From: a virus | Lineage: Duplodnaviria; Caudoviricetes | Strand: one strand, 5' to 3' | IMG/VR virus record: IMGVR_UViG_2687453341_000003 | Location: 32,001 to 96,000 of that record | Length of the DNA stretch: 64,000 nt | Shown here: positions 4,292-21,007 of the stretch, piece by piece | Numbering within the stretch: position 1 is the stretch's first letter | How the letters are laid out: every line of letters starts with the position of its first letter | Position numbers and translations under genes: made by a program | Notes under the pieces: model-generated | Seen by the model: only the letters and a program-made list of their open reading frames with translations | Databases searched by the model: none | Told to the model about the DNA's origin: nothing

Positions 4292-6559
4292 TCAAACCCG
4301 TCGTCGCCCCTGCATTTCCTTGAAACTCAGTCGATTTCGCTTCTCGGGAACATCTCGATCGGTACCAAAGAGCACAACGCCTTGCATGGATGCCGCAACG
4401 GCAGTGCCTACCAAACAGTCGAACCAGTGGTTGTCGGGCTGCTCGGGTCGCTGCTTCCATTCGTCAACTGATCGGCCACGCCCTTCCGTTTTGATGAAAT
4501 ATTCGGACGTGAGATGCTCGGAGAGCATACGGTGGGTTTCGGCGTTGCTACCAAAAAGCGATAAGCAGCCGCGATCGCCCATGGAGACTCGCATTCGAGC
4601 GTTGATGAATGATTTCCACCAGTTGGTGTCATAGAGCACGTGTCGGATGGCGCGCTTGCCATTTACGTTGGGCACGCGCCAGTTGAGACCGACCCGGTCT
4701 CCGGGCCGACGTCGATACTCGCTGAACGGTTGACTTGAAGCACCTACGAATCTCCCGTGGCTCGGCATGATCACGGCGGCATGTTTGGATTGCCGGCAGA
4801 ACTGATAGACCACATCAGTCGATTGGCCCCAGTTGGCGTCGATCAAGCAGCGACCGATTCGCATTGCAGCCCCATCGTCTCGTTGCCACTCGCGATCGAG
4901 TAGATTGGATGTCAGCGATTCAAGGCCGGCGTAGATCGATCCCTCGAGCCCAGTTCCCATTGCCTCGGAACTCAACGTTTGCCGAGCTTCCCGTAATGTG
5001 AAGTACGGACGCTGCTGATCGGGATAGCAACCGTAGTCAATGATATAGCCTGTGAAATCATCCTCCCAGGCAGCGACTACATAGAAGAGCAATTTCTGCT
5101 GGACGTCGATGAATGCGGTGAGGTGGTTTGCTCCGATGGAAACCAAGCCGCGATCCAAGCGGTTGATCTTGCTTGCAACCTCTGCGGGTTTGAGCATCCC
5201 ATCGCTAACCGTCTCGGCTGGCAGCGGTTGGTTCTGGTATTCAGCGAAGAACGCAGCTTCATCCTGAAGCTTGAGGTTCATAGCATGCTGGATTGCCGAA
5301 AGTTCATCGTAGTTAAATCGCTCCTGCCAAGCGACAACAGCGCCGTCATCCATAGCCGCTTGGTTCTGACGATAGAATTCGGTGGCTGCTTCACCACCAT
5401 CACCACCTCGCATCCCTTCCGCGCGGATCTCGGCATAGCGTTCCCAAAGTGTTTCGTTCTTTGGGAAGGAGTAAACCATCTTGGTTCGTTCGCCATTCCA
5501 TTCGGGATGTCGATTGCGATCGAGGATATTGTCGGCCATATCACCAGGGCGAATCACCGTGCAGGGCATGATGCCTGAGATCTTCTTCCCCGGGCCAGCC
5601 AAACCGAGCACTGCACCGGCAAGAATGCTTTCGCGATTTGCACATTGCGAAAGCGAACGCGCACTCTCATCGGTTTGCGGGTCATCGAGCACCACGAGGC
5701 TTGGACGGACCGTTCGACCATCGGGGCGCTTGAACTTCATTCCACGGATACGACCGGTTAGGCCAGCGACCTTGATAATCGCTCCGCTGGCACTGCTACC
5801 TTCGATGGTTGGCAGCACAACCTCTTTGGCGGTCCATCCGATCTGCGTGCGTTTGCCTTTATAGAGCTGACCATTCGCGCGATTTGAGATTCCATCGAGG
5901 GCTTGGATGGGAAAACAAACCTCGGGGAAGTCGGCTAAAAGCAGCTCGTTGCTGTCGAGTTCGGTTTTGATCGAATCGAGCATGTCGCAGGCGTGGCCTT
6001 CGTCGCTACCGATCAGACAGACGAAGTTCCGATGTCCGTAGAGCACTGCCCAGATGCAAGCGACTTCTGCGATCGACGATTTTCCACTGCCACGTGCCAT
6101 CGCCAAGGCAAACAATCCCCCATGGACAACAGCTTGCTCAATTTTGTTGATGACCTTGATATGGTCCGGAGACCATGCGAGATGAAACGTGAGCGGAAAG
6201 TAGGTCTCGCAAAAGTATCGGAAGTCTCGCGATGCGCGATCTTTCCGATCGGGATTGTCTACCACCGGAAGTTCACCGATATCTCGGCCGGCTAGCGCGA
6301 GCGCTGCGTTGCGTGCTCGAGCTCGCTCCTTCATCGCTTCGTACGAATCGACCCCTGAGTTTTGTTTGGGAGTATGGCGTACGACGTGCATCCAGGCGCA
6401 GTAGCGAAGGAGGTCGACCGTCTTGTTGTCACCGATACGGGCGCCGGCGCGTTGCCGATGACGATACAACTGCCGCTCGCTGATCACCTCGCCTAGCGGC
6501 GTTGAGTTGAGCAGCCGGCATAGCTCACTTGGCTTTAGTTTTCGAGGATCACTCGCCAC
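4292..6559 (-). CDS. Terminase large subunit (GpA-like) with N-terminal extension
   Basis: Walker A ARGSGKSS, VVLDDPQ, nuclease AFIDVQ, C-terminal DNHWFDCLV; upstream of the portal. Confidence 0.9.
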   Translation of the reverse strand: MASDPRKLKPSELCRLLNSTPLGEVISERQLYRHRQRAGARIGDNKTVDLLRYCAWMHVVRHTPKQNSGVDSYEAMKERARARNAALALAGRDIGELPVVDNPDRKDRASRDFRYFCETYFPLTFHLAWSPDHIKVINKIEQAVVHGGLFALAMARGSGKSSIAEVACIWAVLYGHRNFVCLIGSDEGHACDMLDSIKTELDSNELLLADFPEVCFPIQALDGISNRANGQLYKGKRTQIGWTAKEVVLPTIEGSSASGAIIKVAGLTGRIRGMKFKRPDGRTVRPSLVVLDDPQTDESARSLSQCANRESILAGAVLGLAGPGKKISGIMPCTVIRPGDMADNILDRNRHPEWNGERTKMVYSFPKNETLWERYAEIRAEGMRGGDGGEAATEFYRQNQAAMDDGAVVAWQERFNYDELSAIQHAMNLKLQDEAAFFAEYQNQPLPAETVSDGMLKPAEVASKINRLDRGLVSIGANHLTAFIDVQQKLLFYVVAAWEDDFTGYIIDYGCYPDQQRPYFTLREARQTLSSEAMGTGLEGSIYAGLESLTSNLLDREWQRDDGAAMRIGRCLIDANWGQSTDVVYQFCRQSKHAAVIMPSHGRFVGASSQPFSEYRRRPGDRVGLNWRVPNVNGKRAIRHVLYDTNWWKSFINARMRVSMGDRGCLSLFGSNAETHRMLSEHLTSEYFIKTEGRGRSVDEWKQRPEQPDNHWFDCLVGTAVAASMQGVVLFGTDRDVPEKRNRLSFKEMQGRRRV

Positions 6560-6755
6560 GGCCCATCTCCTTTGCTTGCCAAGCGCTATAGTTCACGAGG
6601 TTGATCGTGCCATCGGCGTTCGCGGGCGCACCTTCATGGAGATCGCTTCGGATCTTCTCGGCATCGATCCGTTCTCGGTAGGCAGCGGACAGAAGTTTCG
6701 CGGCTTGTTCGATCGAGAGTCTCGTCGGATCGACCGGCTGTTTGTCTTCACTCAT
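6549..6755 (-). CDS. Small HTH-like protein preceding terminase (possible small-subunit role)
   Basis: 68 aa, GGAGG RBS, overlaps the terminase start. Confidence 0.7.
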   Translation of the reverse strand: MSEDKQPVDPTRLSIEQAAKLLSAAYRERIDAEKIRSDLHEGAPANADGTINLVNYSAWQAKEMGRGE

Positions 6756-7030
6756 CGCATTCCTCCGTGACTTGGTAGTTCAAAACGTGGGGCCACTGTT
6801 TGCGCCGTGTCGCGTTTCCCCATCCACTTCGCCTGGTTATGCGAAGCATGTTTGAACGCGACGGTGGCGTAATGTTGGGGCACCGGTGGCTTCTCGAAGA
6901 ACATGCGAAATTGCTGGAAAAACATGATGCAATTCGCTGGATGATTCCTCTCCCGCAAGGCTTCATGTGTGTTGTCGCGACGCGAAGAACGCGACGAAAC
7001 ACAAACCTTGCACCCCAGAGGAACATCACC

Positions 7031-7888
7031 ATGAACGCAAACGAAATTTTCTTTGGTCTGGAATTTGAGACGACGCTTCCGAACAGTGACACCACACCAA
7101 TCGGCCCCTACCACAACGGATACCAAGTCCCTTGGTTGCCAAACGGATGGAAAGCGGAACGCGATGGTAGCATCCGCCCTGAGAGCCCATGCCGCAAAGG
7201 ATGCGAGTTCGTAAGCCCCAAGCTGAAAGGTTACGATGGCCTCAAGGAAATCGAGGAAGCGATCGACCAAATCAACGCTCGTGGGGGACGAGTCAATTCG
7301 AGCTGTGGTCTCCATCTTTCGATAGATTGGCGTGGCGACGCAGCGGCACTCGCACGACTGATCTCCCTGGTTGGCAACCACGAGAAAGCGATTTTCGCGA
7401 GTACTGGGACTCGCCGCCGCGAACAAACGATCTACACCAAGCAGATCAAGCAATACGGCGACAAAGACGCTGCGAAGAATCGATGTGAAGCGGATCGCTA
7501 CCACCTGCTGAACCTTACCCACCTCGCTGCCGGTAGAAACCGTATCGAATTTCGGGCTTTCGCAGGAACTCTCAACAAGACCAAGGTGGTCGGATACCTG
7601 ATGATGGTTTTGGGATTGGTAGAGCTGGCCCTGAACACCAAACGCTGCAGCGATTGGGACTACATCAAGAAGGAAGGAACCAAAAGCTGCTGGGATAGAC
7701 CAGGCGCCGGCCTTGGGGAAACGGAGATCAACCGATTGTTCTACCGCCTCGGTTGGACCAAGGGTTGGTACAAGGGCGCTCTTCGCGACAAGGTTTACGG
7801 GGAGATCACAGGGGAAACCAAACCGGATTGGAAGGCGATCAAGACCAAGCTGATCGAGCTTGCCCGCAAGTACGACCGCGCGGCCTAG
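7031..7888 (+). CDS. Putative amidoligase (COOH-NH2 ligase type 2)
   Basis: FGLEFET, WKAERDGSI, CEFVSPKL, VNSSCGLHLSI, IEFRAFAGTL. Start placed at ATG 7031. Confidence 0.88.
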   Translation: MNANEIFFGLEFETTLPNSDTTPIGPYHNGYQVPWLPNGWKAERDGSIRPESPCRKGCEFVSPKLKGYDGLKEIEEAIDQINARGGRVNSSCGLHLSIDWRGDAAALARLISLVGNHEKAIFASTGTRRREQTIYTKQIKQYGDKDAAKNRCEADRYHLLNLTHLAAGRNRIEFRAFAGTLNKTKVVGYLMMVLGLVELALNTKRCSDWDYIKKEGTKSCWDRPGAGLGETEINRLFYRLGWTKGWYKGALRDKVYGEITGETKPDWKAIKTKLIELARKYDRAA

Positions 7889-7902
7889 GACTAATCCAGA
7901 CG

Positions 7903-7931
7903 AAACGCCGGGAAAACAATCCCGGCGTTTT
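7903..7931 (+). terminator. Intrinsic terminator-like hairpin
   Basis: AAACGCCGGGA-loop-TCCCGGCGTTTT just after the amidoligase stop. Confidence 0.65.
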
Positions 7932-7950
7932 GACGTTTTCTGGCCCACCA

Positions 7951-7984
7951 TTTCGCCAGTATGGCGTCGGCTTGAGTAGTTCAA
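7951..7984 (+). promoter_or_regulatory. Bipartite motif, copy 2
   Basis: TTTCGCCAGT-ATGGCGTCGGCT-TGAGTAGTTCAA. Confidence 0.65.
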
Positions 7985-8029
7985 AGATAGTGGGCAATCG
8001 TCTTCGGCGTCGTCGCATATCGCGTTTTG

Positions 8030-8043
8030 TGCGACATGTCGCA
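8030..8043. promoter_or_regulatory. Operator-like palindrome TGCGACATGTCGCA
   Basis: Perfect 14-bp palindrome; core CGACATGTCG recurs at 21741 and 21859. Confidence 0.55.
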
Positions 8044-8170
8044 GATCAGAGAAACCTGTGAGATTTGCCATTAATCCTCGCATGTTCGGCTTGAGGTTAT
8101 CTAAACCGCATGGCTCCATGGTGTCATCGCGTAAGCGATTCGAAACCGAGTTCCCAACGGAGACACAAAC

Positions 8171-8428
8171 ATGACCAACGCAAGCAACCCACACGCAGCG
8201 ACCGACGCGACCCTTCGCCAAATCTTCAAGGCGATGGACGCCCACCAAGCCCAAGAGATCCGCGAAGCCTACTACAAGGCGATCGAGGGACTGATGACCT
8301 TGGCTGAAACCCTCGAAGTCGCCGACGCACAACAAACCCCCAGCGCCGGCCCGCTTCTCACCGAACACTTCCACGCGGTCCAAGCGTTGGACGCCATGAA
8401 GAACAGCCGCCTCGGCAAGATCCTCTAA
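8171..8428 (+). CDS. Hypothetical protein
   Basis: 85 aa, GGAG RBS, helical composition. Confidence 0.8.
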   Translation: MTNASNPHAATDATLRQIFKAMDAHQAQEIREAYYKAIEGLMTLAETLEVADAQQTPSAGPLLTEHFHAVQALDAMKNSRLGKIL

Positions 8429-8458
8429 ACCCAAGAACATAACGAAGGAGAAATCAAC

Positions 8459-8716
8459 ATGAAGCTCGACACCTTGATCGAAATCCTGAACGACTACCGC
8501 GAAGAGTTCGGAGGCGACGCGGAAGTGCGATTGATGACCCAGCAAAATTGGCCCTTTGAGAACCGTATCTGCGGTGTAACGAGCGGGCGCGACATGAACG
8601 AATCGGATGAGGACGATGACCAAGATGTCGCTGACGACCAAACGGTCTACATCGTCGAAGGGGGGCAAATCTGCTACGGCAGCAAGAGGGCTTGGGAAAA
8701 CTACAAGGATAGCTGA
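8459..8716 (+). CDS. Hypothetical acidic protein
   Basis: 85 aa, AAGGAG RBS, very acidic. Confidence 0.85.
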   Translation: MKLDTLIEILNDYREEFGGDAEVRLMTQQNWPFENRICGVTSGRDMNESDEDDDQDVADDQTVYIVEGGQICYGSKRAWENYKDS

Positions 8717-8722
8717 ACGCAA

Positions 8723-8962
8723 ATGTATATCGGACAACTTCATTTGGTAACCGACCTCGAAGACGGAGATCGGGCCTATCCAGAGGCGAACGTCTCGTAC
8801 GAAATCGAATCGATTGACGACTCTTCGCTCAATACGACCGTCGCGTATGTCGAGCGACGAGGGAATCGGCTGATTGCAAGAGGATACAACGGACGGGATT
8901 ACGCCGTCTCGGGCGTCGATGGTTACGAACTTTACGCGGTTCGAAAGCCGCCACAGCGATGA
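8723..8962 (+). CDS. Hypothetical protein
   Basis: 79 aa, 6 bp after the previous stop, followed by a terminator. Confidence 0.7.
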   Translation: MYIGQLHLVTDLEDGDRAYPEANVSYEIESIDDSSLNTTVAYVERRGNRLIARGYNGRDYAVSGVDGYELYAVRKPPQR

Positions 8963-8983
8963 TGATTGCCCGCTTCGCGACAT

Positions 8984-9017
8984 CGCCCCACGTTTGCGAC
9001 GTGAGGGCGTTCTTTTC
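8984..9017 (+). terminator. Intrinsic terminator-like hairpin
   Basis: CGCCC-CACGT-loop-ACGTG-A-GGGCG followed by TTCTTTT. Confidence 0.6.
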
Positions 9018-9208
9018 TCGATTGGCGTCATTTCCCCCAGATGCAATGCGATGCGACTGTGGCCAAACGGTTGCGACTGTGGGGCTCGGAAACATTCTTC
9101 AAAAAAGCATCGAACTACTTTTTGAATTGCCTTGCTGTTTATCAAAGTGCATGGCTCATGTGTGTATACGCCCCAACGAATTGATAACCCAAACGAAGAG
9201 ATGCATAG

Positions 9209-9523
9209 ATGACTCAACACGACCTCGACCTGACGATTACCAAGATCAGCCACCGAACCCCTGGAGCAGGAGGTTCTTGGGTCCAAGGGAAGATCAACAA
9301 CGAATACCGATTCGATGCCCTGGTCTTCTCGGAACACGCGGAATGCGAATCGTACGAATTGGGAAGGAGCAAGATTTCGAAGCTTTGGATCCAACGCCTT
9401 TCCGATCGCGCGGTGATGTTCAACTTCGACCGCGGGTTGGATGTCGCTGCGGTCAACACCGAGGTTCAGGTGGTGGTTGATTTTCTTTGCGAAGGACTCT
9501 CCGACTTGGTCTTTGGTTCCTAA
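9209..9523 (+). CDS. Hypothetical phage protein
   Basis: 104 aa; SKISKLWI and NFDRG segments resemble small phage/ICE proteins. Confidence 0.8.
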   Translation: MTQHDLDLTITKISHRTPGAGGSWVQGKINNEYRFDALVFSEHAECESYELGRSKISKLWIQRLSDRAVMFNFDRGLDVAAVNTEVQVVVDFLCEGLSDLVFGS

Positions 9524-9592
9524 GCCGAAACGCGGAAGCGATCCGCGTCGCCGATCGGTGGTTCGATCGGCCTGAAGACGGCAGCCAACCAC
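9524..9592 (+). ncRNA. Type II hammerhead ribozyme
   Basis: GCC-GAAA-stem III (CGCGGA/TCCGCG)-GTC site-stem I (GCCGATCG/CGATCGGC)-CTGAAGA-C-GGC. Loop I GTGGTT pairs with downstream AACCAC. Confidence 0.85.
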
Positions 9593-9607
9593 GAACATGA
9601 ACAAGAG

Positions 9608-10201
9608 GTGATCAAGATGAAGAAGGCAGACGTAAAGATCGGCGGCAAGTATTACGCGAATGTTTCCGGCAACCGTTGTGAAATCCGAATTGATGCTGAG
9701 AAACCGCGTGGCGGATGGGATGCCACGAATCTGGCCACAGGCAAGAAGATTCTTATCAAAAGCGCACAGCGTCTTCATGGGGAGGTGACGACGCGAGCCG
9801 GCCAAGCCAAGGTGACCACCGAGGGAAATGTCACCGTGGTCGAGAATGAGCCGGCAACTGTCGAATCGTTCGGGGAGTCCGCGACCAAGGTGGCCGTTCT
9901 TAAGAAGCCTCGTAAAACCAAACCTGCTGCAAACGAATCGGCGGCGGCCGAAACAGCGGCGACTGGGAAAAAACGAATGAGCTGCATCGAAGCGGCATTG
10001 AAGGTCCTCTCCGAATCCACAGAACCCATGAACACGCAACAGATGATTGCTGCCATGGAAGCGAAGGGGTACTGGTCGAGCCCGGGTGGAAAAACTCCCC
10101 ACGCGACCCTCTACAGCGTGATCCTTCGCGACTTGGCCAAAGGCGATTCGAGCCGGTTTGTAAAAGCCGAGCGCGGACGCTTTACAGTCTCCACCAAATA
10201 A
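9608..10201 (+). CDS. Protein with C-terminal HARE-HTH (winged helix) domain
   Basis: SCIEAALKVL...PMNTQQMI...GKTPHATLYSVILRDL...FVKAERGRF. Confidence 0.8.
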   Translation: MIKMKKADVKIGGKYYANVSGNRCEIRIDAEKPRGGWDATNLATGKKILIKSAQRLHGEVTTRAGQAKVTTEGNVTVVENEPATVESFGESATKVAVLKKPRKTKPAANESAAAETAATGKKRMSCIEAALKVLSESTEPMNTQQMIAAMEAKGYWSSPGGKTPHATLYSVILRDLAKGDSSRFVKAERGRFTVSTK

Positions 10202-10219
10202 GCCGAAGGCGATGCAATC

Positions 10220-10771
10220 ATGCGAATTCGATTGAAGAGTGGCGACCGCATACGGTTGGTCTCGATGCCTGATGATCCCGATCCAATCCCGGTCGGGATG
10301 CTTGGAACCGTCACCGAGGTTCATGAGCATCGAGACTGGATGCAGGTTGAGGTGGATTGGGACAACGGCCGCTCCCTGATGCTGACCCTTCCCGATGACT
10401 GTATTGAGATCATCGATTCCCAGAACTCCGAATCCTGTAGGGACCACACCATGTCGACGCGAGCAACGATTGCCCATTCCGATAGCGATGGGAGCTACCA
10501 CGCTACCTACCTGCATTTCGATGGATATCCGGAACATGCAGGGGTGATTCTCAACCAATGGTACAACTCCATCGAGAAGGCCTCGGCGTTGATCGCCGGA
10601 GGAGAACTGCGAAGTTTGAACTCGAGCGATGGGGCACCCGAGTATTTCTCTCGGGCACAACCCCCAAAGCATCTCTGCGACCGGATGTCGCTCATGACGT
10701 TTGCACGCGGCTGCGATGCGAACTACCTTTACGTCTTCGAAGACGGGCATTGGCACTGCCACAAGCTTTAG
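10220..10771 (+). CDS. DUF4314-like domain fused to a YxHxDGYP-type phage domain
   Basis: GDRIRLVSMPDDPDPIPVGMLGTV and VDWDNGRSLML, then MSTRATIA...YLHFDGYP from the internal ATG at 10451. Confidence 0.75.
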   Translation: MRIRLKSGDRIRLVSMPDDPDPIPVGMLGTVTEVHEHRDWMQVEVDWDNGRSLMLTLPDDCIEIIDSQNSESCRDHTMSTRATIAHSDSDGSYHATYLHFDGYPEHAGVILNQWYNSIEKASALIAGGELRSLNSSDGAPEYFSRAQPPKHLCDRMSLMTFARGCDANYLYVFEDGHWHCHKL

Positions 10772-10774
10772 CTC

Positions 10775-12166
10775 TTACTTGGCGTCCGCAGCACGCATCG
10801 GAATCGGAGACTCGCCGGTCCGCTCCAAGATCGCCGGCTTGCCAGTGAATCGCTGGTAGCGATCAACGATGACGTCGGCGTAGAGGCAATCGAGTTCCAT
10901 CAAAAAGGCATTGCGACCGCATTGCTCGGCGCCGATCAAGGTCGAGCCGCTACCACCGAAGAGATCAAGCACATTCTCGCCAGGGAGCGACGAATACTGC
11001 ATGGCTCGTATCGCAAGCTCCACAGGCTTTTCGGTGAGGTGGATCATTGATTGCGGATTGACCTTCTTTACTTGCCACAGATCGGTTGCATTGTTGGGCC
11101 CGTAGTACTTATGCCCCGCCCCTTCCTTCCATCCGTAGAACGCCCATTCATGCGCGCCCATGAAGTCTTTGCGTGTCAAAACAGGATGCTGCTTGTCCCA
11201 AATGATCGATTGGGAGAAATACAAACCATGCTTAGCAAGGAACGGAGGGTAGTTGCCACAGTTGGCGTAGCCTCCCCAGATGTAGAAGCACCGGCCAGGC
11301 AACAGAACGCGTGCGATATTCCCAAACCACGCATCGAGCAATCGATCGAACTCGTTGTCGCTAACAAAGTCGTTCGCGAGGGGGCGATCCTTAGGCCGGA
11401 GCTTCTTATGCGTTGCAGCGTGCTTTGGTTTCCCCGTCTCATGATCGACACCAAAGGAAGCAGCGTTCCCTTGCCCTTGCTTAAGTTTCCCCGACGCAGC
11501 GTCGTTGGTGAACGAGGATAGGCCGGCCGCGATCGCGTTGTTCGATCGTGGTTCCACTTTGACATTGTACGGAGGGTCAGTGTTGCAAAGATGAATCGCA
11601 TTGCCGGCCAATAAGCGATCTAGATCCGCAGGACTCGAAGAATCCCCACAGAGCAAACGATGATTTCCGAGGATCCAAAGATCCCCTGGCTTAGTGATCG
11701 CAGCATCTGGAGGTTCCGGGATTTCGTCCGGGTCGGTCAAGCCTTCGTTGACTCCGGTATCCATCAGCTTCGCAAGTTCCTCCGCGTTAAACCCAAGCAG
11801 CCCGAGGTCGTAGTTTGCTTCCTGCAATGCCGACAATTCGATCGGCAACAGATCGTAATTCCATTCCGCGATCTCAGCGGTCTTGTTATCTGCGATGCGG
11901 TAGGCTCGGACTTGCTCAGGCGACAGGTGCGCCGCTACAACAACGGGCACTCGCTCGAGTCCGAGCTTCTGCGCGGCTTTCAATCTTGTATGCCCGACGA
12001 TGATGACACTATCACTATCGACAACGATTGGCTGTGAGAAGCCATACTCCTTAATCGAAGCAGCGACGGCGTCAACGGCTTTATCGTTGTTGCGGGGGTT
12101 GTTTTCGTAGGGACGAACGCGATCGAGGGTCCACATTTCAATCTGCAATGCATTGATGGTTGACAT
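10775..12166 (-). CDS. ParB-N domain plus N6/N4 DNA methyltransferase
   Basis: PYENNPR, IIVGHTRLKAA, HRLLCGDS, catalytic DPPY, HLTEKPVEL, SAM motif VLDLFGGSGST. Confidence 0.93.
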   Translation of the reverse strand: MSTINALQIEMWTLDRVRPYENNPRNNDKAVDAVAASIKEYGFSQPIVVDSDSVIIVGHTRLKAAQKLGLERVPVVVAAHLSPEQVRAYRIADNKTAEIAEWNYDLLPIELSALQEANYDLGLLGFNAEELAKLMDTGVNEGLTDPDEIPEPPDAAITKPGDLWILGNHRLLCGDSSSPADLDRLLAGNAIHLCNTDPPYNVKVEPRSNNAIAAGLSSFTNDAASGKLKQGQGNAASFGVDHETGKPKHAATHKKLRPKDRPLANDFVSDNEFDRLLDAWFGNIARVLLPGRCFYIWGGYANCGNYPPFLAKHGLYFSQSIIWDKQHPVLTRKDFMGAHEWAFYGWKEGAGHKYYGPNNATDLWQVKKVNPQSMIHLTEKPVELAIRAMQYSSLPGENVLDLFGGSGSTLIGAEQCGRNAFLMELDCLYADVIVDRYQRFTGKPAILERTGESPIPMRAADAK

Positions 12167-12224
12167 ACTGGTATCCTTCCGTGATGGACTCGTGTTGGAA
12201 ATAGATCTCTAATCTTTGGTGGAA

Positions 12225-12455
12225 TTACTTGGCGTTGATGGGCTCGGGCTTCGCTTTCAACGCGTTGACGTTCACGTTTCTCGACGCCTTGCTTCGTACT
12301 TTTCGAAGCGCACGTTTCAACGCTTCATCCCAGGTTGTTGGCTGGGGCTCTGATGGCTTCGAATCCACCTCGCCCGCTTCGCGTTTTGCAATCGAGCGTC
12401 TGGCTGCTGCATTGAATCGCTTCAATTTCCGGCGCATAGATGTGCCGAAATCCAT
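12225..12455 (-). CDS. Small basic hypothetical protein
   Basis: AAGGAG RBS before ATG 12455. Confidence 0.55.
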   Translation of the reverse strand: MDFGTSMRRKLKRFNAAARRSIAKREAGEVDSKPSEPQPTTWDEALKRALRKVRSKASRNVNVNALKAKPEPINAK

Positions 12456-12536
12456 GAAAATCTCCTTGTAAAAATGGGGCGGAAGTCGCCCGGACCCAAA
12501 AAACAAACTCTGTCTAGTAAGGCTCCTGTTCCCGCG

Positions 12537-12570
12537 GCCCTAGAACGCGTTTTAGGGCGGGGTAGGACCC
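12537..12570 (-). other. Candidate cos/packaging site
   Basis: GGGTCCT (lambda cosQ heptamer) at 12570-12564, followed by the near-perfect dyad GCCCTAAAACGCGTTCTAGGGC; upstream of the MTase-terminase genes. Confidence 0.45.
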
Positions 12571-12742
12571 ATTACTATTCGTTGCACCGAAGCTGCTGAG
12601 TGCCACTTTGGCAGACGCAACGTGGGGGCCACTGTTGGCCCACTGACGCGTTCTCCGGTTGGTTTGGCGTTCCATACGAATGCGGTGCTTCGGTTGCGAC
12701 GTGCGCTAACGTGTGCGATTCGTTGCGATTGCGCTTGGTTAC

Positions 12743-13213
12743 TCATGAGTAGTCTCGGATGATATTGCCTGCTGCCTTCCAGAGTTCGTTTGCATTCGTT
12801 GGCGTCCAGTTGCGAACGTTCTCGGCACCACCACCGGCGCCATGCCCCATTTCCCAATAGGTCACATCGGGATTGATTCCGAATGCGGCTGATGCGTCGG
12901 CAGGAATCGTTTCCTCATCGCCGTTTGGCTTGTTACTAGCGCCAAAGGAGAAGTCCATGCAGCGCCGGCCAGCAAACGCTGCAACTTCGTCAAAGGGTTG
13001 CACGTCGATCAAAAGCACATGGGTGTCAGGGCACTCGGAGTGCCCGCATGGAAACTCCACACGGAAGCTTGGCGTCCAACCAACGAGGTCAAACGGCTCA
13101 TAGTCCCACTTCCATTTCGCTTGATCGAAGAAGCACGCCCATTGCGCTTCCAAACGGGAACGGAACTGGACGCCGTTGTAGAAGGTGGACCGAGACTCAA
13201 ATGCGTGATTCAT
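12743..13213 (-). CDS. Phage protein, PD-(D/E)XK nuclease-like
   Basis: YNGVQFRSRLEAQWACFFD...WDYEP motif; catalytic residues look degenerate (WTPSF, LIDVQP). Confidence 0.7.
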   Translation of the reverse strand: MNHAFESRSTFYNGVQFRSRLEAQWACFFDQAKWKWDYEPFDLVGWTPSFRVEFPCGHSECPDTHVLLIDVQPFDEVAAFAGRRCMDFSFGASNKPNGDEETIPADASAAFGINPDVTYWEMGHGAGGGAENVRNWTPTNANELWKAAGNIIRDYS

Positions 13214-13269
13214 ATCGCGGGTACCTTTCGATTTTGGGGTGACTGAGAAATGTGGTTTGAGGCATTCCC

Positions 13270-13607
13270 GGACGTCCGGACGTTTAGGACGTGTTTCCCT
13301 ATACGATCTACATACGGGAAAATACACATACGTTTACCCGTCCAATAACTAACTCCTGACAAACGTCCGGAACGTCCGGAACGTCCTAAACCGCCAATGA
13401 AAATGCTGGGTAAAACGTTAGGACGTTTCGAAATCTTTATGTCCGGGAAATGTCCTAAACGTCCGGAAGTGGACACTGAGCCTCGCATGTGGGAGCAGCG
13501 AAAGTGATCGAACGCCGAACTGCTATCAGCGATTGTGATACTGATCATGAAAACAGCTCCATTTCCCGGACGTTCCCGGACGTTTGATTTTCAACGTCCG
13601 GAAGTCC
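13270..13607. repeat. Iteron-like ACGTCC/GGACGT repeats; candidate replication origin
   Basis: About a dozen copies in both orientations, often 8-10 bp apart (for example 13363, 13372, 13381), at the 3' end of the primase gene. Confidence 0.7.
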
Positions 13608-16214
13608 TAAGCGGTCATTGTGGGCCGACTCAACGAAGACCTGGTACTGGTTGTATTGGCCGTTGAACGAGCGCTTGAATACCGCGAAGGTGCCGTCATC
13701 AAGCTTGAAACGCTCGCCAACGAATCGCCCTGCCAGCTTGCCCATGCGTGTGGTCTGAGAGCGAGGAGTCCCGTCACCGAGTTCGGATTGCAGCACAAAG
13801 TGCTTGTTTGCGAGGTCGGTTAACTCAGACGAAGACCAGATCCCCTGTGGATGATGCGCAAGCGCCGTAACGAGCTCTTCGAACTCGCGGCGCGTCTCAT
13901 CCATTTCACTGGCGGCATCTTCGGCATTGGTCATGAAGTCCGGTTCACCATTGGCTTCAAGAATTCCACCGATGATGTTGCCCCAGCCCTTCTTGTTGAA
14001 TCGAGTTTGGATCTTGGCTAGAGGCATGCCACTGGCTTTCCAGCGTTCGACCATGTTTACCAGCTCACCGAGCAGTTGCAGCCGATGCGTTTGAACGTAT
14101 GCCTCGGGATCATCCATCGAGAATGAACGCCTAGATGGGTCGCCCTCGTATTCCAGGTTGATAACAACGCAGCGAGTGATAAGGTCGCGACTCACATCAG
14201 GCGAGTTGGCGGTGATGCAGAATAGATGCGAGTTCTCAGCGCGAATCTCTTGCGAGAATCCTAGCAGACGAAAGGACAGAATCGGATCGGTGATGGATCG
14301 CTCGAGGCAGGCGGAGTCGATCTTTGGATTGCGGCCGCGTGCCTTCGCGTTGTCGATGATGATAGTCGTTACACCACGTCTGACAATCGTTCCCAGTCGC
14401 TTCTCGAACTCTTCGTCGTTCGCGTTATAGGATGCAGTCTCCACATGATGGCCATCCCGGAGGATTGCCAGAATCTGTGCAAGAACCGATTTGCCTAGCT
14501 CGGGTTGATTCCCGTTGAACAGTACAGCAGGCTTAGAACCGATGAAGCGTGAGACTAGCAGCCCCGTTAGCAGGATACCTATGTAATTAGTGCGATCGGC
14601 CGGCTTCCGCCAACAGAAGTCTCGCAGCAATGCGTCGAGATGCTTGGTCCCCTCAACGGGCTCGATGTTAGGACCAGCATAAAAGAAACCAGTCTGGGGA
14701 TCGAAACCAGGACTGACCAATCGCCAATCCTCTGTGTAGATCGGATTGTGGCTAAACAGCCGGATGGCTGGAAGGCGTTCTCTTTGCCCCACATTGTTGA
14801 GCCAGGTGTTCGCATACGAGGATGGGAGCGGCTTGTACTCACCCCCATCGTCATTCACGAAATAGAACTCGACATGCTGGTTGAGTAGACCTGTCAATTC
14901 CGCCGAGGAGAGAACCGGCGAGATCGATTGCTCCCTCACCACGACCATTTGTTCCACCCGATTGAAACAGGAGCCGGTGGCAAGTAGTCGGTCGGTGATC
15001 TGGTCCATGGTCGTGGCAACAGGCGTTGATCGCGAGTCGATCGTAATGGTTCGTCGTTCTTCGGACTCATCTGCCTGCTGGCCATCCGTTGGCGCAGCTA
15101 CTGTAGGACTTTCCTTTGGCAAACGCTTTTGCAAGCGATCGCACAACGTAGCCCGCACATCGTACTCGCCACTTTCCCAGGTTAAGTCGAAGTAGCGGCG
15201 ACCTTGCTCTGCGAACTTACCCACCGATTGCAGTCGATGCCAAACCTCATCCTTCTCGATCCCGTTTCGAATCGCATAGCAGCAGACTGCGAAGTCAGCC
15301 TCGGAACGTGCACCATCGGGAGCGATCGCACAAGCCGCAATCAACTCCGAGAGCTTGTCCGATTTTCCAGCCGATAGTTTGCGAACAGATGGCAAGGGCA
15401 TCGCCTCGATCTGCCGCCGGCGCTTGGTAGATTCGCTCGTCTTTGCAAACTTCTGAAATGCCTCGAGGGAATACCGCCTGGTTCCATCACATTCGATTAA
15501 TTCTGCTTTGCCCGGTGCGCGACCATTACGTTGATCTTTGCGATTCAATGTGCCAGGAAGCCGGAGCAACCGAGTGAGGTCCGTTGTATGATCGGCGCTG
15601 ATGGCAGACGCGATGCCAGTTAAAAGGTCTTGGGCCTGAAGTGCTTTCGGGCTTGTTTTGGTCAAATGATGGCGTTGATCCACAAAAACACGATCATTAC
15701 CATCCAGCATGTATCGTCTCGGCTTCTTTCGCCCATCGCTGCCGAGAGCCCATTCCGTTTCAATGGGAGGCGGATCGCCCGCGTCGTCGATTAGGAATGG
15801 GCGATCCAGCAGCCAGTAAAGATGCACACCGTTCCCACTGCTAACGATCGCCGTAGGTGTAGGCATCGACTGCGATGCGCATCGTTCAAGGGACTGTGCA
15901 ACGGTGCATCCATCAATATCGGCCCACAGGCATCGAATAACGCGAATCTGCCAAGCGAGGTCGAATCGCCCTTTGTTTCCTACTCGGGGGCAGACTCCGA
16001 AAAACAAGTTCGTGCGCTCCGACTCGGAACTTGCTTCCAATCGAGCCAGTGTTTGTTCAAGAGTCGTCGCCTTGGCGGGCCGATAGCAAACATTGCGATA
16101 ATCGACGCGGCTACGTTTTCGTCCACTTTCATTCCAAGTCTCCACGGGACGAAAGAGGATGAGATCGGACGGATCATACAATGTTGTCAATAAGGTGATC
16201 GCTGGATGAGTCAA
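13545..16214 (-). CDS. RepB-type primase with C-terminal P-loop helicase-like domain
   Basis: LFFGVCPR, LWADID, VSSGNGVHLYWLL, DLTRLLRLPGTLN; GNQPELGKS, IIIDN. Confidence 0.85.
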   Translation of the reverse strand: MTHPAITLLTTLYDPSDLILFRPVETWNESGRKRSRVDYRNVCYRPAKATTLEQTLARLEASSESERTNLFFGVCPRVGNKGRFDLAWQIRVIRCLWADIDGCTVAQSLERCASQSMPTPTAIVSSGNGVHLYWLLDRPFLIDDAGDPPPIETEWALGSDGRKKPRRYMLDGNDRVFVDQRHHLTKTSPKALQAQDLLTGIASAISADHTTDLTRLLRLPGTLNRKDQRNGRAPGKAELIECDGTRRYSLEAFQKFAKTSESTKRRRQIEAMPLPSVRKLSAGKSDKLSELIAACAIAPDGARSEADFAVCCYAIRNGIEKDEVWHRLQSVGKFAEQGRRYFDLTWESGEYDVRATLCDRLQKRLPKESPTVAAPTDGQQADESEERRTITIDSRSTPVATTMDQITDRLLATGSCFNRVEQMVVVREQSISPVLSSAELTGLLNQHVEFYFVNDDGGEYKPLPSSYANTWLNNVGQRERLPAIRLFSHNPIYTEDWRLVSPGFDPQTGFFYAGPNIEPVEGTKHLDALLRDFCWRKPADRTNYIGILLTGLLVSRFIGSKPAVLFNGNQPELGKSVLAQILAILRDGHHVETASYNANDEEFEKRLGTIVRRGVTTIIIDNAKARGRNPKIDSACLERSITDPILSFRLLGFSQEIRAENSHLFCITANSPDVSRDLITRCVVINLEYEGDPSRRSFSMDDPEAYVQTHRLQLLGELVNMVERWKASGMPLAKIQTRFNKKGWGNIIGGILEANGEPDFMTNAEDAASEMDETRREFEELVTALAHHPQGIWSSSELTDLANKHFVLQSELGDGTPRSQTTRMGKLAGRFVGERFKLDDGTFAVFKRSFNGQYNQYQVFVESAHNDRLGLPDVENQTSGNVREMELFS

Positions 16215-16480
16215 GCTGCGCCACCCTTATTTGCTTGGTCGCTGGCTGGTACCCTTACTCCCATCGATTTCAAGACTCGCAACCCATGGTCCGTTTCACA
16301 AAACCGAACCACAGGCTCGTTCTCATCTGATAGTGATGCAAGCTGAGCCCAGCTAACGCTTTTCCATTTGCGACAGCGGTATGCACGAATGGCAATCCCA
16401 GAATCATCGAAACGAACAACAAGGTTTAGACTTGGGAAATGCCGGACGATTGGGCGACTGAAACGGGTGAGTTGCGACAT
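16211..16480 (-). CDS. Hypothetical protein
   Basis: 89 aa; ATGA-coupled to the primase gene. Confidence 0.7.
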   Translation of the reverse strand: MSQLTRFSRPIVRHFPSLNLVVRFDDSGIAIRAYRCRKWKSVSWAQLASLSDENEPVVRFCETDHGLRVLKSMGVRVPASDQANKGGAA

Positions 16481-16482
16481 GG

Positions 16483-16866
16483 CTAGGCGATCTCCATGCT
16501 GGGAGAAAGCGATTGCGACGTCTCATCGCTGAGTTGAACCCTGATTGTGCCGCTCTTCTGCGCTTCGTGCTTGATCGAGAGTAACCAGACAACTTGCGAG
16601 TCATCCCAGAAAGCGCCGGCATGTTGTAACGCATCGAGTACAGATTTTTGTACGTTATCTGCGTCGCGCCGACGATCATCCGGCGGGGTTATGTCGATAC
16701 GAATCGCTAGCGGTCCCATCAAAGGTTTGATACCAGCGGCGATCGCCATTCGTCGAACCTGATGACGATAGGTCCTCGCATCCTTTGAAAGCACGGGACG
16801 TCCTTGGTAGTAGCTGAAGTAATGATTTATCGACGGTGGGTAAGGGAGTGTGAGCTCGGTAACCAT
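16483..16866 (-). CDS. rusA: RusA-family Holliday junction resolvase
   Basis: LPYPPSINHY, PPDDRRRDADNVQKSVLDAL, DDSQV. Confidence 0.92.
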   Translation of the reverse strand: MVTELTLPYPPSINHYFSYYQGRPVLSKDARTYRHQVRRMAIAAGIKPLMGPLAIRIDITPPDDRRRDADNVQKSVLDALQHAGAFWDDSQVVWLLSIKHEAQKSGTIRVQLSDETSQSLSPSMEIA

Positions 16867-16890
16867 CCCTGCTTCCTTTTGCTGAAATAG

Positions 16891-16952
16891 AAAAAGCTGG
16901 AACGGAGCGAATGGCCGATTAGCAACGACTCATTCGCTTTGCCCGTCCCAGC
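16891..16952 (-). terminator. Long hairpin plus U-tract
   Basis: Minus strand GCTGGGACGG..AGCGAATG / CATTCGCT-CCGTTCCAGC-TTTTT. Confidence 0.55.
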
Positions 16953-16982
16953 CGCACCCGTGCGAACTCAAGCCGCTTGTGA

Positions 16983-17447
16983 TCAGAACGGTATATCCCC
17001 TGATGATGGGACTTCACCGCTTGATGCCGCAGCAAGACGAATGCGTCGATTGAAGTAGACGTTGGTGTAGTCACCACGAGTCCGCTTCGTGACTTCCAAG
17101 GTCACATCGAGCAGTTCTTCGAGTCGCCCAGACAATTCGCTGAATTTGGAAAGTTCGATCCCCAGCGTTTTTAGGTCTCCCTTTACATAGGGAATCGACG
17201 CTTGGGTGATGACCGAGTTCTTGAAGATGTGGCGGCCGGCCTGGGAGCCAGACATCACTTCCAAATCGAACTTAATCATCGGATCGCCCTTCTGACTTGA
17301 CTCAAGCTTCACCGACTCGATGCGAGCTTGATACTTGCCATCGGGGACTTCGTCGTACTCCGGTGCCTCCGCAGTTTCGAACTCTTCATCGAACGACGAC
17401 AAATCGACCGAGGGATTGTTGGGTTCGTATTCTTCGTAATCGCTCAT
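16983..17447 (-). CDS. DUF669-like phage ssDNA-binding protein
   Basis: VPDGKYQARI, SQKGDPMIK, acidic DIPF C-terminus; follows an AAA_24 gene. Confidence 0.8.
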   Translation of the reverse strand: MSDYEEYEPNNPSVDLSSFDEEFETAEAPEYDEVPDGKYQARIESVKLESSQKGDPMIKFDLEVMSGSQAGRHIFKNSVITQASIPYVKGDLKTLGIELSKFSELSGRLEELLDVTLEVTKRTRGDYTNVYFNRRIRLAAASSGEVPSSGDIPF

Positions 17448-19300
17448 TACTTAACAGCCTTTCCTGCTGGGGTGCTGCCCGGATTGGAAGAAGACGCAGC
17501 AGAGCCTTTGCCGGGCGCAGGGCTCTGTGCGGTTGAATTTGATGTGTTGCCGCTGAATGCCGAATTGAAAGCGGCATAGCTCAGTGGCAGCATTTCTGGC
17601 AAGCGACCCGTGCGATCGCCGGCTTCGTAAGTGGGATGCGGCTTGGTTCGGAGCACGCGATCGACAACAAGATTGCCTGCAGCGTCCTTACGCGAGACCG
17701 AGTCACCGTAGAGGATGATGTCGACTAGGCCCAACACAACGTTGCGAGCCCGATCAGGCAAGCTTGGGGTCGTTTTGGTGTATTCCCCGGTTCGCGTTTC
17801 AATTGTCTTGTCGACGGCATGCGAAATGAGAATCAAGCCGTATGGCAAACTAGCCAAACGCGTCAGTACTCGATGCCATTCGTTCTTGACCAGAGCCCAG
17901 CCTTTGCCGTGGCCCATGTCCCCTTCGTACTCGATGCCATGTTTGGCACAGACATAGTCCGAGCACATCTTGAAGGCGTTGTCGACCGTGTCGATCACCA
18001 ACGTCTTGAAGTTGTGATCACCCTTGGCGATGAGTTTGCAAGCTTCCAGGAATGTTTCCCACGAATAGGTTGGCACCTTGAACACTTCCAAGTGATTAAG
18101 ACCTGGCTCGCATTCGAAGAACATCGCCTCCGGGAATTGGGAAGCAAAACTCGAGTTATGAACGACGAAGTCGTTGGCTACGAAGTTATGAGTGTCCGGA
18201 ATTGTGAGATCGTAGATTCGACCGGTGCCCAATGGAACAATACTCTTGATGCGATCAAAAAGTATGTTCCCCTGACGATCTAACTGTGTTGAAGCGGCGC
18301 GAATGGAGTATAAGCCTTGGCGAAGTTGCTCAGCCGCGATTTGCTTCTCGCCAAATACACCGATGTCGTCCAGAAATCGCAAGATGTCTTCTTTGGCGGC
18401 GATGTACAGCTCTGCGCCGTACAGCTCACCATCGATAAATCGATCTCGCATGAGACTGACGATTCCAAATCGCAGTAGCAGATGCTGAACCTGTCTCACC
18501 ATTCGAATTGACTTCGAACTGTATGAGACCTTTTTCTTTTCGACCGAACCATCACAGCTAAACAAGCGATTCAAAAAGAGTGCCATTCGCTCTCGTTGAA
18601 GACCGAATACAAAATCGGGAATGAATTTATCGCCAGATCGCAAGCCGTCGATGCCATGTTCTCGAATGAATCGCAAGACATTATTGCGACCAATACGCCC
18701 ACCCTTCACTCGCACCTGTGGGATGCCTTGATCATTGACGAACTCAAGGAATTCATCGCCAATCGATTCAACGGCCTGCTTGAAATCTTCGCGAACTTCT
18801 TCGTCAACCTTCGTAAATACTGGACTCGTACCGCCGAGGCTCCCATCAGCTAAGAGGTAAGCCAGGACTTTGAGAAATTCGGGTTCTGTCCGGACTGTAC
18901 CGAACAGTGACGAATACTCAGCGACGACACCGATTTTGTCATTCTCTTTCAATACGCTTAGCGGTGCCCATCCTTCGCGGGTTAAGAAGGGATGCTCAGC
19001 AGTCGCATCGATAGTGCGGCCTGACTGCGTCGTGATCCGAAACAACATGGCTTCGCCGTTGTCGATGTAGTCGGTTGGATCAGCTGACTTGATGATGCCG
19101 GCCATCCCCATCGATAAGACTGTGCCTTCCTTGCTGGTCACAAGGTCTGCCAAGGTAACTGGCTGCCCAGAAGTTGGGTCATATAGGACTGTATTGCCAG
19201 CGAGACACTTGCCTAGTTTTGGAACGCCATAGAGCAAGATCGACTGCTTTGCCAAGTCGGTGGTCGGCCTGGTCTTGGCTGTTGGTAGAGTCAGTGTCAT
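17447..19300 (-). CDS. AAA_24 (Sak4-like) ATPase containing an intein
   Basis: LLYGVPKLGK|intein|SSFASQF, TLVIDTVD, LILISHA; predicted spliced product 266 aa. Confidence 0.88.
   Translation of the reverse strand: MTLTLPTAKTRPTTDLAKQSILLYGVPKLGKCLAGNTVLYDPTSGQPVTLADLVTSKEGTVLSMGMAGIIKSADPTDYIDNGEAMLFRITTQSGRTIDATAEHPFLTREGWAPLSVLKENDKIGVVAEYSSLFGTVRTEPEFLKVLAYLLADGSLGGTSPVFTKVDEEVREDFKQAVESIGDEFLEFVNDQGIPQVRVKGGRIGRNNVLRFIREHGIDGLRSGDKFIPDFVFGLQRERMALFLNRLFSCDGSVEKKKVSYSSKSIRMVRQVQHLLLRFGIVSLMRDRFIDGELYGAELYIAAKEDILRFLDDIGVFGEKQIAAEQLRQGLYSIRAASTQLDRQGNILFDRIKSIVPLGTGRIYDLTIPDTHNFVANDFVVHNSSFASQFPEAMFFECEPGLNHLEVFKVPTYSWETFLEACKLIAKGDHNFKTLVIDTVDNAFKMCSDYVCAKHGIEYEGDMGHGKGWALVKNEWHRVLTRLASLPYGLILISHAVDKTIETRTGEYTKTTPSLPDRARNVVLGLVDIILYGDSVSRKDAAGNLVVDRVLRTKPHPTYEAGDRTGRLPEMLPLSYAAFNSAFSGNTSNSTAQSPAPGKGSAASSSNPGSTPAGKAVK
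18155..19207 (-). mobile_element. Intein (351 aa) with LAGLIDADG homing endonuclease
   Basis: Starts CLAGNT; block B ATAEHPFL; LAYLLADG and LNRLFSCDG; ends YDLTIPDTHNFVANDFVVHN followed by Ser. Confidence 0.95.
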
Positions 19301-19320
19301 AAATGAGAATTCCTTTCAAA

Positions 19321-20367
19321 TCAGAACGGGGGTGCTTCAGAATCAACACGAGATAGCTCTTCGTTAGGGAGAGCGATCTCGTACAGGTTGTCAGCGACGT
19401 TTGGATTGAATCCCGACTGGCAATACGCTAAGTACTCGCAGGGTCGTTGGTACGAGAAACAGTTCGAGGTATTCAGCAGCCATTTGCCACGTCGGCGGGC
19501 ATCGAGGTATTGCTGCGTGATCTCCCAGACCTCGTCTTGCAACATGGCGAGACGGTCTTCGGAGAGATAAATGAACTCGCGATGGAAGGCCTCGGGACGG
19601 GAATACCATTCCGTTAGCCGGACTTGGAACTCATCGTCGGTCTCAGGCATCTGCCGCTTGGCGGTTGACTTGCCGCTCTTGTTCTTGGCTGCCAATTCGG
19701 CTTTGCGAGCCTCGTACTCTTCCTGCGTTTCGCCTTTCCCTTGCTTGAGCCGACTCTTGAGCAACACGTTGTAGATGACGCCCACGATCGGATAGCCCAA
19801 CTCTCGTAGGTAATGGCAGTACAAGGCGATTTGAGTGTCGGTCCACAGTTTATCGAGATAGCTCGAATCAACCGTGGATGCCGTTTTATGCTCAATCAGG
19901 TACAAACCATCGTGGCAATGAACGATGCCATCAACCTTGCCAGCGATACGGAATGTTTGACTTTGCCGACCCGTATCAGGGTTGCGGATCTCGCCGACGA
20001 ACTCCTTTTCCACTTCGACAATCTCGAACTCTTCGATTGCATAGCGTTCGGCGTAGCCACGGATCATCGCCGTTGCTAGATGCCACTGAACCATCTGGTT
20101 CGAATCAGCGAGGCGATCTTCAAAAGCATCATCAATGTACGTGAGCACATCGCGTAGCCGCGATTCCGCATTTTGCGACCGATACCAAAGCTCGATCGCC
20201 GTATGGATAACGCTCCCGAACGACAACGCCTCTGCACGCTCACGCGGTCGCAATTTATCGAGATAGCGGTTCTTATACTTTCTTGGACAATTGCGAAACG
20301 TATTCAGCGCTGAATAGGTCAGTAGCGTCTTGTCGTTCGCAGCGGATGGCGCAATAACTTGAGACAT
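19321..20367 (-). CDS. PD-(D/E)XK (RecB/Cas4-like) exonuclease
   Basis: TYSALNTFRNCPRKY, FGSVIH, VEKEF, AGKVDGI, LIEHKT, QIALY, C-terminal C..CEY...C. Confidence 0.9.
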   Translation of the reverse strand: MSQVIAPSAANDKTLLTYSALNTFRNCPRKYKNRYLDKLRPRERAEALSFGSVIHTAIELWYRSQNAESRLRDVLTYIDDAFEDRLADSNQMVQWHLATAMIRGYAERYAIEEFEIVEVEKEFVGEIRNPDTGRQSQTFRIAGKVDGIVHCHDGLYLIEHKTASTVDSSYLDKLWTDTQIALYCHYLRELGYPIVGVIYNVLLKSRLKQGKGETQEEYEARKAELAAKNKSGKSTAKRQMPETDDEFQVRLTEWYSRPEAFHREFIYLSEDRLAMLQDEVWEITQQYLDARRRGKWLLNTSNCFSYQRPCEYLAYCQSGFNPNVADNLYEIALPNEELSRVDSEAPPF

Positions 20368-20939: not shown

Positions 20940-20972
20940 TTGGGAATGGTGGGTTGATTTGCCCTCTACCTC

Positions 20973-21007
20973 TTGAACTACTCAGCAAAGTGGCAAACTG
21001 GCGAAAG
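20973..21007 (-). promoter_or_regulatory. Bipartite motif, copy 3
   Basis: Nearly identical to the 3280-3323 copy, including flanking CTCTACC and GCAAACTGGCGAAAG. Confidence 0.7.

Follow-up and report, generated by a model that had tools for sequence, protein, structure and literature searches.

The DNA analysed here is a 64,000-nucleotide (nt) stretch, hereafter the window (positions 32,001 to 96,000 of the IMG/VR virus record IMGVR_UViG_2687453341_000003), which carries a prophage of a Planctomycete. With the exception of one reversed cassette, all of the prophage genes lie on the minus strand, and the feature under study is a very long open reading frame (ORF) that runs on the minus strand exactly opposite that cassette. 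Based on PHROGs and Pfam matches, the order of genes on the minus strand is exonuclease, Sak4-like protein, SSB, primase/polymerase, ParB-methyltransferase (MTase), the cassette, a terS-like gene, large terminase (TerL), acetyltransferase and portal. The MTase gene (10775..12166, minus strand), coding for ParB_N and N6_N4 DNA methyltransferase domains, is the cistron upstream of the long frame. Downstream of the frame are the terS-like gene (6549..6755, minus strand; 68 amino acids (aa), without family match), whose ATG is preceded by a GGAGGA Shine–Dalgarno sequence and whose 3′ end overlaps the TerL start, and the TerL gene itself (4292..6559, minus strand), which encodes a GpA nuclease domain. 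A putative plus-strand gene at 20743–20976 was rejected as a false call opposite minus-strand ORFs, so the cassette is the sole reversed block.

Seven plus-strand genes make up the cassette. These are an amidoligase gene (gene 1, 7031..7888; Amidoligase_2, phrog_2443), three in-phase genes without family matches that encode 85, 85 and 79 aa (gene 2, 8171..8428; gene 3, 8459..8716; gene 4, 8723..8962), a DUF7678 gene (gene 5, 9209..9523), a gene whose product has a HARE-HTH domain at the C-terminus (gene 6, 9608..10201) and a gene with matches to DUF4314 and phrog_1987 (gene 7, 10220..10771), which converges on the MTase gene. Gene 1 is followed by a terminator-like hairpin (7901..7932, plus strand; 13 pairs followed by a T-rich tail), and a type II hammerhead ribozyme is predicted between genes 5 and 6 (9523..9590, plus strand; Rfam Hammerhead_II, RF02276). 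The seven genes are genuine: the Pfam families Amidoligase_2, DUF7678, HARE-HTH and DUF4314 were matched with E-values of 1e-11 to 1e-15, and the amidoligase and phrog_1987 were also matched in PHROGs. Genes were called with home-made tools: a six-frame codon model refined by iteration, and a caller that scores sense against antisense by log-odds after neutralisation of the six stop-related codons. The latter recovered exactly the seven plus-strand genes, and the genome-trained codon model likewise picked these seven and rejected the long minus-strand ORF, while k-means clustering on codon usage (ORFs of at least 300 aa) failed to tell genes from shadows. Reading of the plus strand as a read-through or recoded polyprotein was rejected, as 19 stops, with each of the three kinds represented, interrupt the plus frame from 6776 to 10769.

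In the ORF listing, a minus-strand ORF spans 6752..10762 and encodes 1336 aa from a GTG start. The stops that flank this frame are located at 6752 and 10775, leaving 6755–10774 open, that is 1340 codons; with its own stop, the frame occupies 6752..10774 on the minus strand. The seven cassette starts (7031, 8171, 8459, 8723, 9209, 9608 and 10220), the MTase gene and the long frame all share one phase (position mod 3 = 2), and the six spacers of the cassette, which measure 282, 30, 6, 246, 84 and 18 nt according to the ORF coordinates, are each divisible by three. Besides the seven genes, the frame runs across all six spacers, through the terminator-like hairpin and through the hammerhead. It begins directly after the MTase TAA (10775–10777), in the reading frame of the MTase gene; its first GTG lies 12 nt past that TAA, with a further GTG and an ATG two and four codons inward, and gene 7, the last gene of the cassette, supplies them on the opposite strand through its C-terminal His codons, to which they are complementary. 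At the other end, the TGA of the frame overlaps the ATG of the terS-like gene as ATGA. An initial annotation of the window, made from the sequence alone, had already described seven genes in one frame with spacers in multiples of three, an exactly antisense frame of about 1340 codons free of stops, its passage through spacers, hairpin and ribozyme, and its two ends at the MTase TAA and, as ATGA, on the gene preceding TerL; recomputation of all phases, spacer lengths and junctions agreed with this description throughout.

Long stop-free frames opposite genes may arise from codon bias alone. In the length models of the part of PMC3454372 that was consulted, such shadow ORFs, like the frame described here, are codon-aligned antisense frames whose stops lie opposite TTA, CTA and TCA, and single genes of biased composition in this genome do face runs of about 1000–1200 codons. 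Within the window cassette, the in-phase counts of TTA/CTA/TCA are 0/0/0, versus 17/23/40 in the other two phases. Under genome-wide synonymous usage, the 1018 coding codons would be expected to produce 13.8 antisense stops (P = 5e-7), and the probability that 315 spacer codons are open is ~1e-6 from base composition. The other two frames on the same strand contain ~3% stops, and the spacers, with 189–315 codons counted, have 0 stops in the long frame versus 5 and 5 in the other two. A simulation of 5000 runs, in which synonymous codons were resampled with the usage of the phage and spacers were shuffled, gave a median longest open run of 154 codons, a 99th percentile of 301 and a maximum of 412, with a mean of 36 stops and never fewer than 18. 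The long frame exceeds the maximum of the simulation by a factor of three to four.

The avoidance is specific to the three codons that are read as stops on the opposite strand. In the cassette genes of the window, CTA, TCA and TTA account for 0/61, 0/37 and 0/18 of their codon families, a result with a probability of ~1e-10 at the rates of the phage, in whose other 13 minus-strand genes CTA, TCA and TTA make up 0.16, 0.22 and 0.17 of the respective families. These 13 genes carry 140 TTA/CTA/TCA in 5223 codons (2.7%), which is above the genome rate, and GTA, ACA, GCA, CCA, GGA and CGA are equally frequent in the cassette and in the other phage genes. A second copy of the cassette in the same genome (L001; MTase-HNH-cassette-terS-TerL at 9531-19970 of G000:C1:1437417-1457416) behaves in the same way, with CTA at 0/92, TCA at 0/38 and TTA at 0/32. 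Its cassette is 6.3 kb long and its antisense ORF 2096 aa; 13/13 protein-like ORFs picked by eye in it, several of them homologous to genes of the window, are in exact antisense phase, and the automatic caller accepted eight ORFs, seven of them in phase. Both comparisons proposed along with the initial annotation, that of codon counts with the other genes of the element (0 in the cassette, 140/5223 elsewhere in the phage) and that of observed with simulated ORF length (1340 versus at most 412 codons), point to a frame beyond chance.

Across the 6.5 Mb genome, the codon model rejected 45 ORFs of at least 500 aa. The four longest of them (2096, 1557, 1365 and 1336 aa) all belong to this cassette, one to each of its four copies. 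The next-longest, of 1206 aa, lies within a single Thr/Ser/Ala/Asp-rich gene of 4988 aa, in its exact antisense frame (G000:C1:1961136-1976099); it is the longest ordinary shadow ORF of the genome. Another shadow ORF, of 978 aa, faces a gene with just 4 TTA/CTA/TCA codons in 1235. None of the ordinary shadows inspected spans a set of genes together with spacers, whereas the frames described here cross 7–13 or more genes and the spacers between them, combine this with codon-specific avoidance and are conserved across shuffled cassettes. The long frame is beyond chance, and an ordinary shadow ORF is rejected as a sufficient explanation on the grounds of spacer openness, the simulation and the confinement of avoidance to TTA, CTA and TCA.

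For comparison with relatives, a TerL-anchored scan of genome contigs was performed, which yielded 80 loci with TerL 73–99% identical, from Pirellula, Stieleria, Novipirellula, Rubripirellula, Aporhodopirellula, Gemmatales and others. Of these, 46 with at least 3 kb of upstream sequence were analysed, and 34 were dropped because their upstream sequence was short. The same scan of IMG/VR gave another 80 loci, 44 of which entered the analysis with 6 kb or more of upstream sequence; the other 36 were dropped. An open frame is present in 8/8 genome loci that combine a TerL identity of at least 89% with 5 kb or more of upstream sequence, and in 21/21 IMG/VR loci with TerL at least 90% identical. 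In these 29 close loci, the frames are 1300–2514 codons long, lie on the TerL strand and end at or near terS. Frame length takes more than 20 distinct values across the loci, and BLAST comparison revealed that the cassettes are mosaics, with common genes present, absent or reordered from one locus to another. Whole-module indels of 390 and 330 nt were found, both multiples of three. Over 24 loci, 128/155 of the called reverse genes are in exact antisense phase, cassette delimitation being automatic and noisy in that small false plus-strand calls inside the long frame shorten the cassettes; the other two same-strand frames contain ~2.5–4% stops in genes and spacers alike. The frame is kept in every close locus despite cassette shuffling, which bears on the question for which the initial annotation had suggested an alignment of homologous elements, namely, whether indels and cassette swaps preserve the frame. 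The complete frame is found solely in the Pirellula-type clade, and more distant relatives keep partial long frames.

Openness persists through 10–25% TerL divergence and cassette shuffling, which speaks against an ordinary shadow ORF, as does the openness of spacers, hairpin and ribozyme in just one of the frames. A related explanation is that a DNA-level process generates modules in multiples of three with no translation of the minus strand, and recombination between in-phase repeats could indeed spread such modules. Only ribosomes, however, read frames, and it is for this reason that the minus strand of the cassette is considered to be translated. We regard an origin in codon bias or in such a DNA-level process as hardly credible.

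The phase-locking itself can be understood from the geometry of the two strands, since only codon-aligned antisense stops mirror single sense codons that have synonyms (TTA, CTA and TCA). A continuous open frame costs the cassette proteins nothing, provided that all genes and spacers hold that phase. What is maintained is the openness of the frame and not a protein. In seven pairs of related cassettes, the ratio of nonsynonymous to synonymous substitution rates (dN/dS) was 0.11–0.19 for the cassette genes; for the long frame in the same pairs, it was 1.11–1.60 over the genes and 0.70–1.72 in the spacers. Because the long frame lacks the purifying selection that the cassette genes have, its peptide is unconstrained. 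The initial annotation had proposed that selection holds the frame open and that translation, rather than its product, may be the function, a view that codon avoidance, conservation, dN/dS and the junctions described below all support.

These data also bear on the possibility that the long ORF is a true overprinted gene, with a product of 1300–2500 aa that is perhaps disordered and plays a role in its own right. Openness of the ORF is conserved, and public gene calls list nine homologous ORFs of 1327–2308 aa as hypothetical proteins. Long translated antisense genes exist in bacteria: the part of PMC8850804 that was consulted describes antisense overlapping gene pairs of 957 and 1536 nt in Pseudomonas aeruginosa, which likewise involve a long selected ORF antisense to annotated genes. 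As described there, each of these lies within one gene and is under purifying selection on the protein, whereas the frame studied here extends over 4–7.5 kb and many genes and spacers and shows no protein-level constraint. With respect to the features by which antisense overlapping genes are recognised, the frame is open in relatives, and purifying selection on its own amino acids is absent, with dN/dS near 1 in the spacers. In addition, the length and content of the ORF vary with every cassette architecture, its product has no match in a Pfam profile search, and in many loci, as follows, the track is split between two frames. A protein function for the long ORF therefore seems very improbable.

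Both ends of the frame are fixed relative to the neighbouring genes. Where the upstream gene could be identified (11 loci), the long frame starts at most 24 nt past the upstream stop or overlaps it as ATGA, the latter being the case in L029 and L002. The 3′ junction was inspected in 32 loci of the Pirellula-type clade, in 31 of which terS could be located. In 12/31 loci, the frame stops on the terS start itself (ATGA or ATGAGTGA). In the other 19/31, it stops at most 16 nt from the start of a relay ORF of 52–119 codons in another frame, which in turn stops on the terS start. A gap between the frame, or the relay, and terS was found in 0/31 loci. The terS start reads ATGAGTGA at 6748–6757 of the window and at the homologous sites in L020-L148. 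Each of the two alternative frames thereby meets a TGA no more than 8 nt from the ATG, so that any incoming frame ends on the start codon. The sequences support a likeness of both ends to junctions of translational coupling. As a separate observation, six loci (L101, L127, L129, L131, L137 and L002) have an extra 750–1000 nt between terS and TerL, which the window is without.

Taken as a whole, the best reading, to which we give slightly better than an even chance, is that the long frame is translated and that its translation prevents Rho polarity. In the passages of PMC11551753 that were available, untranslated antisense RNAs are described as normally terminated by Rho and able to form R-loops. 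The genome encodes Rho (Rho_RNA_bind, PF07497, 107 bits, in a 471-aa frame), and it is from the established action of Rho on untranslated and on antisense transcripts that we infer a bridge of ribosomes across the cassette, a reading that fits the facts. The lack of a terminator between the MTase gene and gene 7, which converge with their stop codons 3 nt apart, is also in its favour. The antisense RNA has merely a 1–2.5% excess of C over G (GC skew), a value uninformative on rut sites.

The small accessory genes of the cassette, with a repeated upstream motif of their own, sit in reverse orientation between terS and the MTase (or HNH) gene. According to this reading, a minus-strand transcript running from the MTase/HNH gene to the packaging genes would have to cross 4–7.5 kb antisense to the cassette. 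Ribosomes finishing the upstream cistron would re-initiate within a few codons, translate the entire antisense stretch and terminate either on the terS start or close to the start codon, by a few nucleotides, of a relay ORF that ends there. The peptide would be without function, the translating ribosomes themselves being what matters: they would shield an otherwise naked 4-kb RNA from Rho and RNases, support the polymerase and be delivered to terS and TerL. All cassette genes and spacers in multiples of three would thereby be forced into one phase.

The cassette has regulatory sequences that appear to be its own. A repeat of ~40 nt, composed of GGCTTGA, ~17 nt and a 19-nt core with a short palindrome, sits before most of the cassette genes, 45–60 nt ahead of a GGAG-type ribosome-binding site. 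In the window, this cassette-specific, promoter- or operator-like motif is located on the plus strand upstream of gene 2 (8103..8124), with further copies at 9143–9165 and, degenerate, at 6950–6972; the copies in L001 lie within 12194–16127, and 7/8 of them are in one phase. Genome-wide, 13/13 matches with at most three mismatches fall inside the four cassettes, on the cassette strand, and the motif matches no Rfam family. Judged from its position and sequence, the repeat is a candidate phage-specific promoter or operator, and it probably also serves as a site of module exchange. An invertible segment was considered and rejected, as none of nine weak inverted repeats flanks the cassette.

In a rival reading, the frame is translated for the same physical reason, namely, that antisense RNA without ribosomes would be terminated or degraded, but the purpose is regulatory. 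The translated antisense transcript would then silence the cassette late in infection, by transcriptional interference or antisense pairing, and active cassette promoters would block late transcription, which would act as a developmental timer with the feeding of terS not the main point; in a variant of this idea, translation would prevent the R-loops or double-stranded RNA that arise from convergent transcription. The confinement of the repeat to the four cassettes is in line with it, as is the convergence of MTase and gene 7, whose stop codons are separated by 3 nt with no terminator between them, and so is the account of untranslated antisense RNA in the same passages of PMC11551753, as Rho-terminated and R-loop-prone. 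The signatures of selection would be identical to those expected from a bridge of ribosomes. Interference alone, however, needs neither the precise tie of the frame to the terS start in 31/31 loci nor that to the upstream stop. We consider a mainly regulatory purpose unlikely, if worth serious attention, and the two purposes are compatible with each other.

Several observations weigh against a bridge that protects transcription into the terminase genes. The RNA data that bear on transcription through the cassette are unstranded, shallow metatranscriptome contigs. These RNA-library contigs, from one study (X1, X2, X4 and X5), cover parts of the region at depth 1–8, and DNA carry-over is possible for them. 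One of them, of 919 nt (7337–8255), crosses the stop of gene 1, the hairpin and the repeat, others cross the MTase/gene 7 junction, and pieces tile 6650–7088; uncovered bins are uninformative, and the contigs speak neither for nor against transcription of the minus strand. The Shine–Dalgarno sequence of terS is strong and its own, and a promoter is possible in the 275-nt divergent spacer upstream of terS. A scan of 6000–12500 for sigma-70-type promoters was negative on both strands, but it does not cover Planctomycete promoters. Other cistrons of the same operon are parted by untranslated gaps of 60–300 nt, which implies that full ribosome cover is not required everywhere. The loci compared are related by descent and are not independent samples. 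In more distant loci, with TerL 73–83% identical, a frame of at least 1000 codons is present in only 9/33 genome and 7/23 viral loci, and in L061, L082 and L090, which have reverse cassettes of 6–7.6 kb, the longest frame covers 27–32%. Such partial frames mean either that the phage can manage without the full bridge or that these copies are decaying.

The proposed use of translation has parallels in known systems. Leader peptides and upstream ORFs control the access of Rho or attenuation, and operons use translational coupling; in both, it is translation that matters and not the product. The proposed logic would be the same here, with ribosomes on the nascent RNA blocking Rho and stop/start overlaps handing the ribosomes on. 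The known cases, by comparison, comprise tens of codons within leaders, whereas the frame described here would be constitutive, is 1300–2500 codons long, lies opposite a multi-gene cassette and would force the phases of its genes. Phages also possess dedicated antitermination systems: lambda N and Q, HK022 put RNA and P4 Psu modify the polymerase or inhibit Rho. The task would be the same, namely, to carry late transcription across long stretches despite terminators and Rho, but these systems alter the polymerase or inhibit Rho, and in the present case no such factor was identified and translation itself is proposed instead. Antitermination at pR′ is mentioned in the part of PMC7547250 that was seen.

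Two known kinds of element, the antisense overlapping ORF and the ORF translated for its own sake, are combined in this locus, while its scale and architectural consequence were not found in the literature searched. Full-text searching, supplements excluded, brought up neither an antisense ORF that extends over several genes together with their spacers, nor phase-locked cassettes, nor any description of the present feature in phages of Planctomycetes. It is quite possible, if not quite probable, that the cassette represents a previously unrecognised genome architecture, a phase-locked reverse cassette built of modules in multiples of three and readable on both strands, with proteins encoded one way and a sequence-unconstrained ribosome track of 4–7.5 kb the other way, which escorts the polymerase to the terminase genes. 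In-phase repeats would allow modules to be gained, lost or swapped without breaking the track, and the head-on layout may act as a timer between cassette and late expression.

If the proposed bridge exists, selection is able to preserve the openness of an ORF over several kilobases for no other reason than that it is translated, and can impose a common reading phase on unrelated genes and spacers. For Planctomycetes, in which Rho polarity and the coupling of transcription to translation are little studied, the system would offer a natural and genetically tractable route to both. It could also account for the tolerance of phages towards "moron" cassettes, that is, accessory genes lying reversed within operons. 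It is also of importance for annotation, as calling the long ORF as a protein would displace the seven real small genes that it overlaps; the hypothetical proteins called from its homologues seem to reflect an error that recurs systematically in the annotation of this phage family.

The hammerhead in the cassette scores 50.8 bits against the Rfam gathering score of 37 and covers model positions 1–66 of 66, the ribozyme being predicted from sequence; its core reads CUGAAGA, compared with the consensus CUGAUGA. It is kept after the DUF7678 gene and before the HARE-HTH gene in three copies (window 9523–9590, L001 16485–16552 and L002 7025–7092). An Rfam search of 6500–11000 at E-values up to 1 returned nothing besides this hammerhead. 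Type II hammerheads between small accessory genes of prophages, such as ardA, are reported in the passages of Perreault et al. 2011 (PMC3088659) that were seen. The placement in a prophage accessory block is the same here, with the difference that the ribozyme of the window must also remain open on the antisense strand; those passages contain nothing on antisense frames.

With regard to the surroundings of the cassette, a group II intron is present at 40770–42572 on the minus strand (Rfam domains D1–D4 and the 3′ end, between which lies an ORF of 459 aa, 40847–42226), outside the part of the prophage under study. The portal gene is followed by an IS-type transposase gene (244–1443 of the window), which parts the window copy from the second copy. 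Directly upstream of the window, this second, diverged copy continues as MTase-HNH-cassette-terS-TerL-portal and structural genes. By this arrangement, the prophage is either tandemly duplicated or doubled over the MTase-to-TerL segment. Two additional copies of the cassette are located near 5.91 and 5.99 Mb of the same genome.

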